Of a stretch of DNA of 64,000 nucleotides, positions 4,690 through 10,499 are shown piece after piece. Each line of letters begins with the position of its first letter. Position 1 is the stretch's first letter. The position numbers and the translations under genes are program-made. The notes under the pieces are model-generated. The model worked only from the letters and a program-made list of their open reading frames with translations, had not been told where the DNA came from and searched no databases. The stretch is from Pseudomonadota bacterium (GTDB taxonomy: Bacteria > Pseudomonadota > Gammaproteobacteria > Steroidobacterales > Rariloculaceae). The DNA lies in NCBI GenBank assembly GCA_036337035.1, contig JAYZFC010000008.1, positions 3,213 through 67,212 on the forward strand. Reading direction: 5' to 3'.

Positions 4690-5922
4690 TTACTCATATC
4701 TCAAGGAATCAATAGGCAAAACAGATGCTGCTCTATATGATGGATAAATAGTAGATATAACAGAGATAAAAATTGATATGACAGAAATTAATACGATATC
4801 AAAAACCCTTACCTCTGAGGGAAGTACACTAATATAAAAAACATCGCTAGGCATAATATTAAAATTAAAAGTTTTTTCTAACCAAGGAAATATATTCTCT
4901 GCATTGATAGCTAAAAATAAACCAATAATATTTCCTGCAATTATTCCTGAAATTCCTACGATTGATCCTTGTAGAATAAAAATTTTTAATATACTTTTTT
5001 TCTCTATCCCAAGAGTCTTAAGTATAGCAATATCAGTCTCTTTATCAGTTACAAACATAACTAAAGAGGCAACAATATTAAATGTAGCAACCGCAACAAT
5101 TAAACCAAGTAATAAGGTCATCATAATTTTTTCAATTTTAATAGCATTGAAATAGCTACGATTCTCAATGCTCCAATCAGAATACACATAATCATTTCTT
5201 GAAAAATTTAAAAGCTGGTCTTGAATATTAGCAATAGATAATGGCTGATCTAAATAAATACCTATGGTAGTTGGGACCCCTCTTAAACCTTTTAAAATAC
5301 TTGCATCAGAGATATTCATTATAGCTAAACTAGAGTCGTGTTCTAGAACGCCAGCTTCAAAAATTCCAGCTAATAAGAAAGTCTTAATTTTTGCTGAAGG
5401 TATGCCTCCTTCTACTGAAGGAATCATTATATTAACACTATCGCCTATATCCAATCCTAAACTATATGCAAGAGCATAGCCTACAGCAATTCTATTCGAA
5501 TAGGGTTGAAGATTACTAATATCGCCAGAAATAAAAAAAGAATTAGCCTCAAGAAAGTAAGGCCCCTGATCAACTTCGATACCTTGAATAATCACTGGCT
5601 TTAAATTATCTCCAATACCAATAACAGCCTCTCCAGAAACAAATGGCATAGATCTAGTAACACCAGGAATTGTGGATATTTTATTGCTTAGATTTTCCCA
5701 GTATTCTATGCCATCTTTATTACTTATAGTTGCATGTGGTTTCATATTGATTAAACGACTTTTTAGTTCTGTCTCTAGACCGTTCATAACTGACAGTATT
5801 ACTATTAATGATGCCACACCGAGAGCCACACCAGCCAAAGAAGACATACTAATAAAAGACATATATCTGCTCTTTTTTTTTGACCAGATATATCTTAGCG
5901 CTATAAATAATTCAAAAAACAT
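4690..5922 (-). CDS. lolC: lipoprotein-releasing system permease (LolC-like)
   Basis: The ORF track gives 4690..5979. Homologues begin near the conserved FIALRYIWSKKKSRYMSF motif, so I place the start at Met20 (ATG at 5922). Same MacB/FtsX-type architecture as the downstream paralogue. Confidence 0.8.
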   Translation of the reverse strand: MFFELFIALRYIWSKKKSRYMSFISMSSLAGVALGVASLIVILSVMNGLETELKSRLINMKPHATISNKDGIEYWENLSNKISTIPGVTRSMPFVSGEAVIGIGDNLKPVIIQGIEVDQGPYFLEANSFFISGDISNLQPYSNRIAVGYALAYSLGLDIGDSVNIMIPSVEGGIPSAKIKTFLLAGIFEAGVLEHDSSLAIMNISDASILKGLRGVPTTIGIYLDQPLSIANIQDQLLNFSRNDYVYSDWSIENRSYFNAIKIEKIMMTLLLGLIVAVATFNIVASLVMFVTDKETDIAILKTLGIEKKSILKIFILQGSIVGISGIIAGNIIGLFLAINAENIFPWLEKTFNFNIMPSDVFYISVLPSEVRVFDIVLISVISIFISVISTIYPSYRAASVLPIDSLRYE

Positions 5923-5983
5923 TTGAAATAATATATAAGTTGAATAAAATACATGCCTACGAAAACTCCAAAGGAACAATATT

Positions 5984-7042
5984 ATGAAGTTTACTAACTT
6001 ATTAGTGCCGTTTCTAATTGTATTTCTACCTTTTTCATCATTTTCTCAAGATATAGCTATAGATCATGCTCCTATCAGCATAATGGGCGACCATATGCAC
6101 AAAGCTGGCGAATATATGATTTCTTTAAGAACTATGAAGATGAAAATGTCAGGTAACATAAATAAATCAGGAAGTTTATCAGATTCTCAGATTATCAACC
6201 TCCCTAACCCATATCAGATGGGCTCGATGCCAGCAAAGCTAAGTGTTGTTCCACAAAACATGGATATGAATATGACTATGTTAGGTTTCATGTATGCGCC
6301 TTCTGACAAGTTTACATTAATGGCAATGGCAATGTTTAATGGTAAAGAAATGACACTCAACACGTACAAAGGAATGATGGATAGGGCATATATTGGGTCT
6401 TTTGAAACGTTATCTTCAAATAAATTATCATCATTTTCCTTATCAACACTAATCAGGCTAACTAATGAAGAAAATCATAATGCTCACATAGAAATTGGTT
6501 TATCAGAATATTCAGGATCAAATAATCTTAAAGGTATAGTTCTTACCCCAATGAACATGAAAAAAAATATGGTACTTCCATATGCAATGCAGCAATCAGA
6601 TAAATCAAAGAAATTAATATTTGCGTATACTAGAAATAATAAGATTAATGAAAATTATCATTCAGGATTTCAAATAAGAAGTATTTCTACTATAGAAAAG
6701 GATAAATGGAGCTATGGAGATAGGTTGATTTTTTCTGGTTGGCTACAAAAACAGTTTGATATCAATACATCTGGATCATTGGCAGTCTATTTTAAAAATG
6801 AAGGAAAGATAAATGGTAGAGATTCTTCTATAATGGCTCCTGTACAAACTGCTAATCCAGAGAACTATGGCGGCAATACTGTAGAGATAGGATTTGGGAT
6901 AAACAAATTATTGACAATATTCCCAGGTCTTCATAAAGATAGGATAGCTATTGAGGCATTAATTCCAATTAATCAGCAACCAAATGGAACTCAAATGAAA
7001 AGAACATGGTCATTAACTTTTGGATACCAAAAAACATTCTAA
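5984..7042 (+). CDS. Met/His-rich predicted beta-barrel outer-membrane protein, function unknown
   Basis: 352 aa. Sec signal peptide MKFTNLLVPFLIVFLPFSSFSQD. C-terminal ...LTFGYQKTF ends in Phe, as outer-membrane barrel proteins typically do. Met clusters MKMKM, MDMNMTM and LMAMAM, plus DHAPISIMGDHMH near the mature N-terminus. I cannot name a characterised family with confidence. Confidence 0.65.
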   Translation: MKFTNLLVPFLIVFLPFSSFSQDIAIDHAPISIMGDHMHKAGEYMISLRTMKMKMSGNINKSGSLSDSQIINLPNPYQMGSMPAKLSVVPQNMDMNMTMLGFMYAPSDKFTLMAMAMFNGKEMTLNTYKGMMDRAYIGSFETLSSNKLSSFSLSTLIRLTNEENHNAHIEIGLSEYSGSNNLKGIVLTPMNMKKNMVLPYAMQQSDKSKKLIFAYTRNNKINENYHSGFQIRSISTIEKDKWSYGDRLIFSGWLQKQFDINTSGSLAVYFKNEGKINGRDSSIMAPVQTANPENYGGNTVEIGFGINKLLTIFPGLHKDRIAIEALIPINQQPNGTQMKRTWSLTFGYQKTF

Positions 7043-10000
7043 TAGAATATTATTAGAGGGTTTAAAGCCTAATTTTAATCTTACTGAGAATATTTCAGGT
7101 TATTCAATAGGATCTTTATATGGCTGTTCTGATTCCTTATTATTATCATTAATATCAGATAAGTACAAAAATATATGTGTCATAACTAATAATGATGCTA
7201 GTTCAGAACAAATTATTAATGAAATAAAGTTTTTTAATAATCAAATAGAATTAATAAATCTAGGTGATTACGGAACTCTGCCTTATGACGACTATTCTCC
7301 GCCTCAGGAATTACTATCTGAGAGAATTAAATCCTTATATAATATTCTAACTATAAAAAATAAAATAATTGTCTCTAATGTTTCAAATCTATTTAACAAG
7401 CTACCCCCGAAGGAATTTATAAAATCTAGATTATTTAATATAAAGATTAATGCCTATTATAACTATGATTATATAAAAGATAAATTAAACGAGTTTGGCT
7501 ATTTTAAAACAAATAATGTTATATCCCCTGGAGAATTTGCAGTAAGAGGTTCACTTATTGACATTTATCCAGCAAATAAAGAAAACCCTGTTAGGATAGA
7601 TTTTTTTGATAATTCAATTGATTCTATAAGAATTTTCAACCCTAATAGCCAGGCAACTATAAAAAAAATAGAAAACCTAAGTATACTTCCAGCTAGAGAC
7701 TTTACGTTAAATGATGAATCAATAATAAGATTTAGAGAAAATTTTAGAAAATATATTAATTGTAACCCTAGTGAGTCAAATATATATAATAAAATAAGTG
7801 AAGGAAGAATACCGGCAGGAATAGAATACTACCTCCCCCTTTTCTTTGATAAAACTTATTCATTATTAGATTACTTACATAAAGATACGATTCTTATCTC
7901 CCTTGGTAATTATGAAGCTAGCATTAAAGATTCATGGAAAACTATAAATAATCGATTTATAGAGTCAAAAGAGGTTTCAACAGAACCAAAGTTAAAACCA
8001 GAATTTATATTTAATTCTCCTAAAGAAATTAAAAAAGATATCTCTAATTTCAAATCTCTTACACTATTTGATAAAAAAATTAAGGAACAGAAATGTTTAT
8101 CTTATAATGTTGAGGCCATTCACCCATTATCTATTGGCGATCCTTATATTTTAAATAAAATAGATAGATACATTAAATCTAATAAAACTGAAAAGATTTT
8201 AATTACATCATCATCTTTAGGAAATAATGAAATACTAAATAAAATATTAAATGAATACCAAGTTTCAGCTAAATATATACAATCTTGGGATGAATTTATT
8301 TTATCAGATACTGGAATATTTATAATAGTTGCAAATATTAAAGATGGTTTAGTTCTTCCGTATCTCAACTTAATGGTAATAACCTCAGAATTACTTGGAA
8401 TAGAAAAACCTCAGCAATTTATTAAATCAAAGAGAGTAACTAATAAAACTCCAGAGACTATTATAAAAGAATTAAATGATCTTAGAATAAGTTCTCCTGT
8501 CATACATGACGAATATGGAATAGGAAGATATAAGGGCTTAAAGCCAATTAAAGTAAATACAGATGGAATAATAATGACTGAGTTCTTAGCTATTGAGTAT
8601 GCTGACCATGATATGCTTTATGTTCCTATCTATAATTTACATCTAATCAATAGATACACAGGAGCTTCTCCTGATAAAGCCCCACTCCATAAGCTTGGTT
8701 CGGATCAATGGATTAAAGCCAAAAAAAGAGCTGCTACAAAAGTTCGTGATATTGCAGCTGAGCTTCTAAAAATCTATGCTGAAAGATCAGGATCTAAGGG
8801 AATCTCTTTTTCAATTAATGATAATGCCTATCAAGAGTTTTCATTAGAATTTCCATTTCAAGAAACAGAAGATCAGGAAACTACAATTAACTCGGTCCTT
8901 AAAGACTTAGAACAACAATACCCTATGGATAGAATTGTTTGTGGTGATGTAGGATTTGGAAAAACAGAAGTTGCTCTTAGGGCAGCATTCGTTGTTGCTA
9001 ATGCAGGGTATCAAGTTGCTGTTCTGGTACCAACTACACTTCTAGCTCAACAACATTTTACTACATTTAGCGAAAGATTTATAAATTGGCCAATCAATAT
9101 AGGTCTATTATCTCGTTTTGAATCCTCTAAAAATTTAGAAAAAACAAAAAATAATTTAGAGAAAGGGTTAATAGATATAGTTATTGGTACTCATAAATTA
9201 CTAAATAAGGATCTAAAATTTAAATCATTAGGATTAGTTATTATTGATGAAGAGCATAGATTTGGTGTAAGACACAAAGAAAAACTTAAAGAAATAAGGT
9301 CCGATATTGATGTGCTATCACTAACAGCTACACCAATTCCTAGAACCCTAAATATGACTCTAGGCGGTTTAAGAGATTTATCAATAATTGCCACTCCCCC
9401 TCAAGATAGGCTTTCAATTAAAACTATGCATAATGAGTGGAGTAATATTTCTATAAAAGAAACGATTATGAGAGAAATTCATCGAGGTGGTCAAATATAT
9501 TTTGTTCACAATCATATAGATTCCATTAAAACAATCTTCTCTAAGTTAAATAAATTACTACCTGAAATAAAAATTGAAATTGCCCATGGTAGGATGCCTG
9601 AAAATAAGCTTGAATCAATTATGATAGATTTCTATAAAAGAAAATTTGATCTACTTCTTTGTACAACTATAATTGAAAGTGGTATAGATATACCTTCAGC
9701 TAATACAATAATAATTAACAGAGCTGATAAGCTAGGGCTGGCGCAACTACATCAACTAAGAGGAAGAGTTGGTAGATCAAACCATCAAGCCTATGCTTTG
9801 CTTATTAGCCCTCCTAAAATATCTTTGAACGAAGATGCAAAGAAAAGACTAGAGGCTATAGAAATACTAGAAGATCTCGGCTCTGGCTTTACCCTTTCTA
9901 ATCATGATCTTGAAATCAGAGGTGCAGGAGAATTACTAGGAAAAGATCAAAGTGGTAAAATTCAAGCTATAGGATTTTCTTATTACAATCAGCTACTTGA

Positions 10001-10499
10001 AAAAGCAGTGTTATCACTAAAAACTGGGCAGGAACCTGATCTAATAAATAACTCCACAAAAAATGTTGATATTGAAATAGGTCTACCTGCATTAATCACA
10101 GAACAATACATGCCAGATGTCCATATGAGGCTTGTTCATTACAAAAGGATTAGTGAGGCAGGCACTCAAAAAGAGCTTGATAAAATTCAGGCTGATTTGA
10201 TAGATAGGTTTGGAATTCTTCCAGACGAGACTAATACATTATTCTCAGTAACAAGCTTAAAGATTAAAGCTAATATTCTTGGTATTAGTAAGATAATTGT
10301 AAAAAATAATAAGGCAAGCTTAACTTTTAGAGCGGAAACAAAGATTGATCCATTTGCTTTAACAGATCTAGTCAATAATTTTCCTCATAAATATAATCTT
10401 GAAAATCAATACAAACTAACATATAGCTGGCCAATGGACCATCCATCTAATAGAATTGAAGAAGTTAATAACTTCATAAACTTATTATCTAAGGAATAA
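7020..10499 (+). CDS. mfd: transcription-repair coupling factor Mfd
   Basis: 1159 aa. The N-terminal region aligns by eye to the E. coli Mfd UvrB-homology region (LPYDDYSPPQE, GEFAVRGSLIDIYP, RIDFFDNSIDSIRIF). SF2 translocase motifs GDVGFGKTEVA, DEEHRFGV and QLHQLRGRVGRS are present. The TTG start at 7020 overlaps the upstream OMP gene by 23 nt, so the exact start is uncertain. Confidence 0.93.
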   Translation: MDTKKHSNRILLEGLKPNFNLTENISGYSIGSLYGCSDSLLLSLISDKYKNICVITNNDASSEQIINEIKFFNNQIELINLGDYGTLPYDDYSPPQELLSERIKSLYNILTIKNKIIVSNVSNLFNKLPPKEFIKSRLFNIKINAYYNYDYIKDKLNEFGYFKTNNVISPGEFAVRGSLIDIYPANKENPVRIDFFDNSIDSIRIFNPNSQATIKKIENLSILPARDFTLNDESIIRFRENFRKYINCNPSESNIYNKISEGRIPAGIEYYLPLFFDKTYSLLDYLHKDTILISLGNYEASIKDSWKTINNRFIESKEVSTEPKLKPEFIFNSPKEIKKDISNFKSLTLFDKKIKEQKCLSYNVEAIHPLSIGDPYILNKIDRYIKSNKTEKILITSSSLGNNEILNKILNEYQVSAKYIQSWDEFILSDTGIFIIVANIKDGLVLPYLNLMVITSELLGIEKPQQFIKSKRVTNKTPETIIKELNDLRISSPVIHDEYGIGRYKGLKPIKVNTDGIIMTEFLAIEYADHDMLYVPIYNLHLINRYTGASPDKAPLHKLGSDQWIKAKKRAATKVRDIAAELLKIYAERSGSKGISFSINDNAYQEFSLEFPFQETEDQETTINSVLKDLEQQYPMDRIVCGDVGFGKTEVALRAAFVVANAGYQVAVLVPTTLLAQQHFTTFSERFINWPINIGLLSRFESSKNLEKTKNNLEKGLIDIVIGTHKLLNKDLKFKSLGLVIIDEEHRFGVRHKEKLKEIRSDIDVLSLTATPIPRTLNMTLGGLRDLSIIATPPQDRLSIKTMHNEWSNISIKETIMREIHRGGQIYFVHNHIDSIKTIFSKLNKLLPEIKIEIAHGRMPENKLESIMIDFYKRKFDLLLCTTIIESGIDIPSANTIIINRADKLGLAQLHQLRGRVGRSNHQAYALLISPPKISLNEDAKKRLEAIEILEDLGSGFTLSNHDLEIRGAGELLGKDQSGKIQAIGFSYYNQLLEKAVLSLKTGQEPDLINNSTKNVDIEIGLPALITEQYMPDVHMRLVHYKRISEAGTQKELDKIQADLIDRFGILPDETNTLFSVTSLKIKANILGISKIIVKNNKASLTFRAETKIDPFALTDLVNNFPHKYNLENQYKLTYSWPMDHPSNRIEEVNNFINLLSKE

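Follow-up and report, generated by a model that had tools for sequence, protein, structure and literature searches.

The barrel gene and its locus

We analysed a 64,000-nucleotide stretch of contig JAYZFC010000008.1 (positions 3,213 to 67,212) of a gammaproteobacterial assembly (GCA_036337035.1; Rariloculaceae), hereafter referred to as the window, with the focus on one complete gene (positions 5984-7042 of the window) that encodes a Met/His-rich predicted outer-membrane beta-barrel protein of 352 amino acids (aa). The gene starts with ATG, ends with TAA and, like all of its features described below, is located on the forward strand. In an earlier note, made from the sequence alone, this protein had been proposed to be a copper- or silver-handling channel. 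The approximate Met counts given there proved to be exact: the translation contains 26 Met, 20 of which lie within residues 1-135, and all of the Met clusters that had been quoted (TMKMKMSG, NMDMNMTMLGFM, TLMAMAMF and KGMMD), as well as the paired-His motif DHAPISIMGDHMH, are present. The protein has seven His (at positions 28, 37, 39, 165, 168, 226 and 317), three of them within DHAPISIMGDHMH (residues 27-39), and zero Cys in all 352 aa.

The Met content of this open reading frame (ORF), with the start codon excluded, is 7.1%, compared with a mean of 2.1% (standard deviation 1.0%) among the window's 58 other ORFs no shorter than 100 aa, which makes it the most Met-rich of the 59 (z = 6.4). 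The enrichment is concentrated in residues 22-135 (16.7% Met vs 2.8% in the remainder of the protein). The G+C content of the ORF (32.3%) is close to that of the window (32.1%), and the abundance of Met is not a background composition effect of an AT-rich genome.

The two envelope-targeting features named in the note can both be read from the sequence. These are (i) a Sec-type signal peptide (residues 1-21, MKFTNLLVPFLIVFLPFSSFS, 5984-6046), composed of MK, 15 hydrophobic residues and SFS, with predicted cleavage before Q, and (ii) a strand resembling a C-terminal beta-signal (SLTFGYQKTF, 7010-7039), whose final residue is Phe. The signal peptide region is variable in the family alignment, and it is helical, with low confidence (predicted local distance difference test, pLDDT), in the structural model presented below. 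At the C-terminus (...LTFGYQKTF) aromatic and hydrophobic residues alternate, G347 is invariant, Y348, Q349 and K350 are 84-89% conserved, and the last strand of the model spans residues 337-351.

The gene had been described as inserted between divergent lolC and mfd, which is fair, as this placement is shared only by two close relatives (L007, 85% identity; L012, 64% identity) among more than 80 loci examined. The divergent intergenic region between lolC and the barrel gene is approximately 120 bp long and contains a promoter-like site (TTGAAA-16-TAAAAT, 5923-5950; 10 of 12 positions matching) about 34 bp upstream of the ATG; such sites do not exceed shuffle expectation in this region, and this one is a candidate only. 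The lolC ORF (4690-5979, reverse strand; 429 aa, starting with a TTG at 5979) is probably too long, the call in the syntenic contig L007 being 390 aa; the length of ~120 bp given for the intergenic region follows from this shorter lolC. The 3′ end of the barrel gene overlaps by 23 nt (7020-7042) the mfd ORF (7020-10499, forward strand), which starts with a TTG at 7020, and the same overlap is called in L007. No terminator was found between the two genes. The arrangement suggests that the barrel gene is probably co-transcribed with the housekeeping gene mfd and, since no copper regulator is visible either, its expression looks constitutive.

Predicted fold and conserved Met and His positions

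Searches with the window protein against Pfam, NCBIfam and PDB sequences gave no match even at E≤10, in agreement with the inability of the note to place it in a characterised family. An AlphaFold2 model was built from 45 homologs (mean pLDDT 88.2; predicted template modelling score 0.84). It is almost wholly composed of beta-strands, and those read off its secondary-structure string would fit 12 transmembrane strands plus an extracellular hairpin. A Foldseek comparison with the PDB returned 262 matches at E≤1e-3, and those listed are all outer-membrane barrels. The top matches were 12-stranded FapF (5o65, E 8e-13) and the COG4313 channel Pput2725 (4rl8, E 1.4e-12; template modelling score 0.73, normalised by the target), with FadL/TodX next in the ranking. 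The barrel fold anticipated from the signal peptide and C-terminus is thus borne out by the predicted structure.

The FapF matches raise the question of a pore for polypeptide or amyloid secretion, which we consider hardly credible. Not only are FapF chains the best structural matches, they are also the only PDB sequences touched by the family profile. This sequence match is insignificant (E 0.23), as are all others from profile searches of PDB sequences (e.g. adenylosuccinate lyase, E 0.31). FapF and COG4313 barrels are structural neighbours, so that the FapF match reflects a shared 12-strand scaffold; moreover, FapF forms trimers and has a coiled-coil, of which the present protein gives no indication. 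Neither fap genes nor genes for amyloid subunits occur near any locus examined, and the secretion function was rejected for want of a fap operon context.

The link to the COG4313 superfamily (PF13557) is supported in a stepwise manner. The window protein itself is below the PF13557 gathering score (22 bits), with no match at E≤10, and only one of its 45 close relatives matches this profile, and weakly (E 0.0015). Several distant homologs exceed the threshold (P0249, 30.8 bits; P0223, 31.9; P0225, 25.1; P0131, 24.8), and approximately one quarter of the family-profile matches carry a precomputed PF13557 annotation. The tie, as traced through sequence profiles, is at the superfamily level and transitive. 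COG4313 channels are 12-stranded monomers, in which the segment preceding strand 1 fills the lumen, and their loop cluster includes a conserved Pro-Thr-Gly motif in L3 (PMC4493636). At the corresponding position the broad-family consensus reads SLPTGS, the window protein SEYSGS and its marine clade QKSxGxND; judged from the alignment, the motif is degenerate in the window protein. Residues 22-43 of the latter form no regular secondary structure, yet they are modelled with confidence (block pLDDT 83-87) and highly conserved, which is consistent with a packed rather than floppy segment. Taken together, sequence and model place the protein as a divergent offshoot of the COG4313 superfamily, and a COG4313-like outer-membrane barrel is very probably the correct description of its fold.

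The family defined by this protein comprises 755 proteins at E≤1e-3 in a 90%-identity database and 1,385 cluster representatives in a 50%-identity library. We assessed conservation in an alignment of 45 relatives (42-85% identity) and in a broad alignment of 50 sequences (25-63% identity). In the former, eight Met are invariant (M45, M55, M93, M95, M99, M113, M202 and M338) and a further eight are at least 90% conserved (M53, M97, M103, M115, M117, M123, M132 and M190). In the broad alignment conservation remains at or above 90% for ten Met and for H37, and the consensus can be written HAPIGVMGDHxH…MxSYRxMxMxM…PxxMxMxMHMxGxMYAP…TLMxM.

The conserved Met form ladders on the first three strands. 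Strand beta1 (residues 44-60, 6113-6163) carries M45, M51, M53 and M55, together with S47 and R49, on a single face (entropy 0.81 vs 2.23 bits for the opposite face; M53 93% conserved). In strand beta2 (residues 88-104, 6245-6295) the ladder consists of M93, M95, M97, M99 and M103, again on one face (0.38 vs 1.49 bits), with 98-100% Met at all five positions; this five-Met pattern is whole in 195 of 221 matched proteins from a scan of 266 family members. Strand beta3 (residues 110-128, 6311-6367) bears M113, M115, M117 and M123, as well as K121 (0.49 vs 1.64 bits; ladder Met 91-100% conserved), and its opposite face (L112, A114, A116 and F118) looks lipid-facing. The three strands are neighbours and their conserved Met, 14-15 in number, all occupy the same alternate face, while in the rest of the barrel the conserved face is polar and the variable face hydrophobic. 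From this strand periodicity, the conservation and the COG4313 precedent, we infer that the Met face lines the lumen. The simplest reading is that on strands 1-3 unbroken ladders of Met would face the lumen across the whole membrane.

Before strand 1 lies an N-terminal His/Met motif (DHAPISIMGDHMHK, residues 27-40, 6062-6103; consensus HAPIGVMGDHxHK), in which, among the 45 relatives, P30 is 100%, H37 89%, M34 87%, and H28 and H39 82% conserved. Its His triad is intact in 181 of the 199 proteins in which the motif was found in the same scan of 266. By analogy with the COG4313 channels, this segment may lie in the barrel lumen. Further conserved elements are located outside the first three strands: (i) a Met pair in the loop after beta3 (M131-M132, 6374-6379; 78% and 91% Met), (ii) a hairpin or loop, TPMNMKKNMVLPYAMQ (residues 188-203, 6545-6592), which carries M190 (98%), M192, M196 and M202, with P189, P199, Y200, M202 and Q203 invariant, and (iii) a long, highly conserved loop between strands 9 and 10, IMAPVQTANPENYGG (residues 283-297, 6830-6874), in which I283, P286, Q288, N294, Y295, G296 and G297 are invariant and which may be a constriction loop. 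Family loci were found by means of [MI][ITV]LPY[GA]MQ, which was among the two most conserved peptides, and of the signature QTANPxNYG. In two relatives (P0044 and P0049, alignment columns ~195-225) the first extracellular loop is enlarged by inserted Met-rich sequence (…MPMMMKNSES…MKMP…), which would place Met-rich capture elements on the outer face as well as at the periplasmic N-terminus.

In sequence terms the Met and His positions are the most conserved of the protein and a family signature, not the product of drift; the weight given to them in the note is justified by their conservation across a large family. A relative encoded by a Methylocystis iwaonis plasmid (L094, 9007-9966) aligns end to end with only 1.3% Met and has I, L, A, T or V at the ladder positions; since it keeps the alignment without the ladder Met, the ladder is dispensable for the fold. 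The gene of this relative adjoins TetR and ABC transporter genes.

The superfamily assignment suggests an alternative function, namely that of an uptake channel for hydrophobic molecules similar to TcpY, SphA or Pput2725, with Met serving as a flexible, greasy lining or as a lateral-opening surface. COG4313/PF13557 is the nearest superfamily by both structure and sequence, and its members are implicated in taking up hydrophobic compounds (trichlorophenol for TcpY, sphingosine for SphA) and bind detergent in the lumen. In addition, SAR86 bacteria, which encode many members of the family, use lipids and hydrophobic compounds and possess many outer-membrane receptors. This function does not explain the strict identity of the Met (98-100%) at positions where I, L or V would serve, as they do in the Met-free relative, and it leaves unaccounted for the His triad and the features described in the next section, i.e. 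His/Met-rich tails, three kinds of chaperone fusion, CsoR operators and CruR-like upstream ORFs (uORFs). No recurrent neighbours for aromatic or lipid catabolism were found in more than 80 loci, the context in the window being lolCDE/mfd, and the Pro-Thr-Gly loop motif is degenerate. We therefore regard a hydrophobic-substrate channel as improbable. A match to a non-metal family in which the Met/His positions are not conserved had been named in the note as evidence that would speak against a metal channel. The nearest structural family does indeed consist of hydrophobic-substrate channels, but the Met/His positions are conserved within the clade and absent from the Met-free relative; the evidence asked for is thus present in part, and the metal channel withstands this check.

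Copper-related contexts and regulation of the family

The family is concentrated in abundant ocean lineages (SAR86, PS1, OCS116, Porticoccaceae and marine Acidobacteriota), with further members in some methylotrophs and roseobacters. A search of plasmids retrieved distant homologs only (23-27% identity). Genes encoding tyrosine recombinases or phage-type integrases adjoin the barrel gene in a Tara contig (L001, 7914-9239, reverse strand; barrel P0014) and in a Ruegeria plasmid (L092, 10836-11891, forward strand); these neighbours, and a distribution that is patchy in phylogeny but coherently marine (Gammaproteobacteria, Alphaproteobacteria and Acidobacteriota), suggest that the gene has spread horizontally. 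Members are annotated as "transporter", "hypothetical protein" or, wrongly, "alpha-amylase". The last label, found in RefSeq/UniRef on the Methylocystis protein and on P0268, P0273 and P0294, is evidently a propagated misannotation.

Gene neighbourhoods were counted in 80 species loci (±10 kb). Most close marine relatives occur in variable and uninformative contexts; other members show direct links to copper. In several proteins the barrel is fused to an N-terminal copper chaperone domain: PCuAC (E 4e-32 and 2.4e-36), NosL (E 1.1e-28 and 2.9e-13) or CusF (E 3.9e-13). Because of their N-terminal position, the fused domains should be periplasmic. A stand-alone PCuAC gene is located 83 bp downstream of the barrel gene, on the same strand, in Roseovarius sp. 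EL26. Many members also carry His/Met-rich N-terminal tails, e.g. EDPHAHHNHAHHDHHAH, SSMDMESMSVKPMEMESMKMM and MDHMDHMDHMDHMDHM, and the 25 residues ahead of the His/Met motif include six or more His+Met in 10 of 49 barrels from the 80 loci. The barrel encoded by a plasmid of Ruegeria sp. SCSIO 43209 (L092, 1041-8560) has a Met-rich tail, NMSGMGSMSRMM. Its gene adjoins those for a DsbD-domain protein, DUF2933 and a second CcmF/CcmH/CcmI/DsbE set, which are envelope redox genes of the kinds encountered in metal-stress islands.

Elements of two types of putative copper-responsive regulation were detected. In nine loci of Porticoccaceae/Cellvibrionales and in the contigs encoding P0060 (L004-L006), a csoR gene is divergent from the barrel gene. 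The CsoR protein (87 aa; PF02583, E 3.5e-26) contains Cys33, His58 and Cys62, and each csoR-barrel intergenic region contains exactly one palindrome, such as TTTTACCCTGCGGGGGTAT, of the form TACCC-N4-5-GGGTA, 116-141 bp before the barrel match. In 1.37 Mb of loci the pattern ACCC-N3-7-GGGT occurs 45 times, and 10 of these matches are at the csoR-barrel position (~400 bp); in all, a CsoR box and/or a neighbouring csoR gene is present in 10-11 loci. Both the palindromes and the C-H-C residues agree with published CsoR boxes (ATATACCCCTNAGGGGTATAT, TATACCCnnnnnGGGTATA and ATACCCCnnnGGGGTAT) and with the Cu(I)-sensor ligand set (PMC3902906, PMC5057107).

The second type consists of exported, RAPP-terminated uORFs, which in five to six loci lie ~75-85 bp upstream of the barrel start on the same strand. 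They are found in Marinobacter sp. SS21, Roseovarius, a widespread set of gammaproteobacterial contigs and a Cellvibrionaceae metagenome-assembled genome (MAG). Their layout is strict, with one conserved Cys, exactly 46 residues, RAPP, 3-6 residues and the stop codon; only 13 of 8,384 ORFs scanned end with RAPP in this manner. They give weak, full-length matches to DUF2946, i.e. CruR, a copper-responsive uORF; the related CutF controls a multicopper oxidase (PMC9973294). The uORFs, which always head the barrel gene (L095, 6458-6925; L096, 6544-6927; L097, 6487-6918, also L097/98; L079, 9460-9936), constitute a subclass with a transmembrane anchor, an LCxG motif, a middle part rich in His (up to 14) and acidic residues, and one Cys in place of CXXC, and they are termed CruR-like only, because the first Cys of CXXC is absent.

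CruR-type uORFs are also present at some distance from the barrel. Four SAR86 loci (L066, 13607-16836, reverse strand; L078, L083 and L091) contain, 2.6-6 kb from the barrel gene, a SCO1/SenC gene (E 2.3e-37), a CXXC…RAPP uORF and a TonB-dependent receptor gene. The uORF is of the canonical CruR type (DCQVCE…SARAPPNS, 40 residues from CXXC to RAPP; unrecognised by Pfam at E≤0.01), and the gene order is that of the Bordetella cruR-bfrG architecture, here in SAR86. In a Pseudomonadales MAG (L039, 5242-7845, forward strand) a uORF-receptor pair lies upstream of the barrel gene.

A third recurrent neighbour is a PepSY_TM gene, located 114-165 bp upstream of the barrel gene on the same strand in 18 of the 80 loci, all from SAR86, and preceded in 13 of them by a MerC-family gene. 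The resulting cassette, in which the PepSY_TM protein is short (180 aa), is exemplified by L081 (MerC, 7421-7831; PepSY_TM, 9299-9841; barrel, 10001) and occurs in a subset of L056-L090; a MerC gene is also found near the CsoR-linked barrel in L004-L006. The MerC and PepSY_TM proteins may be inner-membrane partners for a soft metal. A PepSY_TM protein, PA3789, is a partner of the copper importer OprC (PMC8610252), and PepSY_TM genes also accompany CruR operons.

Overall, a strictly copper-linked element is present within ±10 kb in 17 of the 80 loci, or in 35 when PepSY_TM and MerC are included. The copper hypothesis of the note thus gained comparative support from relatives (PCuAC, NosL and CusF fusions, an adjacent PCuAC gene, csoR divergons and CruR-like uORFs), and we consider a link of the barrel family to copper to be likely on these comparative grounds. 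The window protein is 45-50% identical to the CsoR-linked and SAR86 members and retains all ladder positions. In two loci a ferrochelatase gene lies 0.5-1.2 kb downstream of the barrel gene (L001, 11610-12578, and L004, 12294-13292, both reverse strand); the two barrels, P0014 and P0060, belong to different 90%-identity clusters, and the proximity may be a coincidence or reflect a haem/metal link.

Some of these contexts may also be read in favour of another metal, or of a range of soft and transition metals (Fe(II), Zn, Ni, Hg(II) or Ag(I)), with copper as one context among others. The MerC-family genes of the 13 SAR86 loci and of L004-L006 are compatible with this, as are PepSY_TM proteins such as FoxB, which are iron reductases, and the His-rich tracts, which bind Ni and Zn as well; a link to Ni/Co has been reported for CutF-like uORFs whose motifs contain His only. 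A further case is plasmid pMSC49c of Methylosinus sp. C49 (L093, 7110-13185), which encodes a 738-aa fusion composed of an OMP_b-brl domain, a His/Gly-rich linker of ~100 aa and the barrel. A Cys-rich ORF ending in RAPP comes before the gene for this fusion and feoB-feoC directly after it, while PepSY_TM, FecR/sigma and TonB receptor genes are located upstream; this iron-type context is at odds with a purely copper reading. In the Methylosinus barrel the beta1 ladder is gone and the His motif is incomplete, and judging by its sequence this protein may have diverged in function. Thioether ladders are typical of Cu(I)/Ag(I), not of Fe(II), Zn or Ni, a preference that is established coordination chemistry. 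The PCuAC, NosL and CusF domains are all copper-specific, and the CsoR proteins possess Cu(I)-type C-H-C ligands together with a canonical CsoR box. A different or broader metal specificity is, in our view, unlikely, though better placed than a hydrophobic substrate.

The proximity of methionine sulfoxide reductase genes points to yet another possibility, i.e. that the Met-rich barrel is a sacrificial antioxidant shield, whose surface-exposed and lumenal Met would trap photochemical reactive oxygen species in surface seawater and be recycled by a secreted reductase. In eight SAR86 loci (L056, L057, L067 (12881-14152, forward strand), L074, L077, L080, L084 and L089) a signal-peptide-bearing MsrA-thioredoxin-MsrB fusion (PF01625 + PF13098 + PF01641) is encoded 0.9-2.9 kb downstream of the barrel gene on the same strand, and AhpC/Redoxin genes are found near the barrel gene in L001, L004 and L097. 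The Msr fusion could be an envelope repair system for Met-dependent proteins, and its nearness would be equally expected if a Met-dependent copper channel needed repair. It is limited to 8 of the 80 loci and to one lineage, and msrAB was not found in the window. Moreover, an oxidant sink requires abundance of Met, not invariant positions on a single face of three strands plus a His triad, and the chaperone fusions, CsoR box and CruR-like uORFs would remain unexplained. This function is considered very improbable.

Proposed mechanism and comparison with known systems

Based on the sequence conservation, the model and the copper links of relatives, we propose that the barrel works as a passive Cu(I) channel with a Met ladder, to which we attach moderate confidence. 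The window protein would do the same job as its copper-linked relatives, and we infer that its substrate is Cu(I). In such a channel, Cu(I), and probably Ag(I), would cross the outer membrane by stepwise ligand exchange along Met and His sites, the thioether ladders of beta1-beta3 spanning the full depth of the membrane. The conserved His-x8-His-x-His/Met segment before strand 1 would sit in the lumen, as in COG4313 channels, and serve, at its periplasmic end, as a gate or for hand-over; there, periplasmic partners (PCuAC, NosL and CusF domains, or His/Met-rich tails) would give or take copper. Conduction would need no energy input; any transport by the window protein should be passive, given its size of 352 aa and the lack of a plug domain and a TonB box.

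The direction of transport could be set by the gradient, and a passive channel could serve for venting and for supply in different lineages. The only signal of known sign is CsoR control. CsoR repressors are released by excess Cu(I), so that csoR divergons imply induction of the barrel under copper stress; this control and the periplasm-facing His/Met tails, as in PcoB, favour the venting of periplasmic Cu(I). Cuproenzymes are assembled with the help of PCuAC, NosL and SCO1, and the PCuAC and NosL fusions, the SCO1-cruR-TonB receptor neighbours and the PepSY_TM partners favour supply to cuproenzymes. In Bordetella, copper turns the CruR-controlled uptake operon off, a logic that points to acquisition.

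In its full form, the proposal is that these proteins are an overlooked, passive, Cu(I)-selective class found in abundance worldwide, of which the window protein would be the first example and in which a COG4313-type barrel has been repurposed by means of a Met ladder and a His-rich plug, that they provide the main route for ionic copper in dominant marine bacterioplankton, and that they are wired to CsoR, to CruR-like arrest peptides or to a chaperone fusion, depending on the lineage. This reading is tentative, with a probability of roughly 0.45.

Several observations weigh against the Cu(I) channel. All of the copper evidence comes from homologs at 25-50% identity and none from the window locus: the 64 kb of the window contain no match to the CsoR box (TACCC-N-GGGTA), no csoR homolog, no RAPP-terminated or CruR-like uORF, and no PCuAC, SCO1, MerC or PepSY_TM. 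A motif scan of ±10 kb around the 80 loci detected no CopA-type ATPase, HMA domain, multicopper oxidase or CuA motif. The co-occurrence with cop/cus genes that the note had suggested looking for was accordingly negative at the neighbourhood level, which places the family outside classical cop/cus/pco islands, and 45 of the 80 loci have no metal-related neighbour whatever. The lumenal orientation of the Met face and the position of the N-terminal plug are deduced from periodicity, conservation and the COG4313 precedent. Finally, the Methylosinus relative is found in a feoB/feoC iron context, the MerC neighbours could point to other soft metals, and the characterised members of COG4313 transport hydrophobic organics.

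Outer-membrane copper channels and COG4313 barrels are both already known. A search of the literature, largely without subscription journals, found nothing on copper for COG4313; the synteny analyses of CruR and CutF do not mention PF13557 in the text or supplements examined, and a 2020 review of bacterial outer-membrane copper routes (general porins, OprC/NosA, MbnT, ComC, CusC and PcoB) includes no such barrel. Within the searchable literature, the family is undescribed in copper biology. The passage of ionic copper across the Gram-negative outer membrane is poorly understood, and the role of PcoB is disputed. If correct, the proposal would define a mechanistically distinct route that needs no energy and offer a tractable system in which to study how a beta-barrel selects Cu(I), correct a widespread misannotation ("alpha-amylase" or generic "transporter") and add to the genes known to be controlled by CsoR and CruR-type arrest peptides. 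As the family abounds in ocean lineages, for which copper is limiting as well as toxic, it is relevant to the cycling of copper in the sea and to the interpretation of metagenomes, and cultured carriers exist (Marinobacter sp. SS21, Roseovarius sp. EL26, Ruegeria plasmids and Methyloligella).

The characterised COG4313 proteins (Pput2725, TcpY and SphA) resemble the present family in the predicted ~12-stranded barrel, the similar size and the non-strand N-terminal segment; the LPTG loop is kept in the broad-family consensus, and NCBI names both groups "transporter". They differ in that Met ladders and a His triad have not been described for COG4313, and in that the contexts of the present family are related to copper and not to aromatic or lipid catabolism.

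PcoB/CopB (PF05275) is likewise a small outer-membrane copper barrel, for which the direction of transport is debated. Its His/Met-rich N-terminal domain is needed for copper resistance (PMC12509749), and many members of the present family carry a comparable periplasmic, disordered His/Met-rich tract; in contrast, the signal peptide of the window protein is followed at once by the conserved 22-residue motif, and no His/Met extension intervenes. The PF05275 profile matched neither the window protein nor its 45 relatives at E≤10. In the PcoB pore, acidic residues (Asp/Glu) form a funnel that suits Cu(II) and has a single binding site (PMC9210255), whereas the conserved wall residues here are Met, suited to Cu(I). 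Furthermore, PcoB is encoded with the multicopper oxidase PcoA, while no protein with the motif HCHxxxHxxxxM is encoded within ±10 kb of the 80 family loci.

OprC guides the ion along a methionine track (11-12 Met), in which triads of Met serve as Ag(I)/Cu(I) sites (PMC8610252), and the 14-15 conserved Met on three strands of the present family seem to resemble the track of OprC/NosA, which is a direct structural precedent for the proposed mechanism. OprC also has a PepSY_TM partner (PA3789, FoxB-like), as do the SAR86 barrels, and CruR-type uORFs head such operons. OprC is, however, a 22-stranded, plug-containing and TonB-energised protein whose high-affinity site is CxxxM-HxM; Cys and a TonB box are both absent from the window protein, which also lacks any Pfam match to Plug or TonB_dep_Rec. 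The eukaryotic transporter Ctr1, with its Met rings, and CusA, with its Met relay, are alpha-helical proteins of the plasma or inner membrane with an unrelated fold, and what they would share with the barrel described here is the exchange of Cu(I) ligands along stacked Met.

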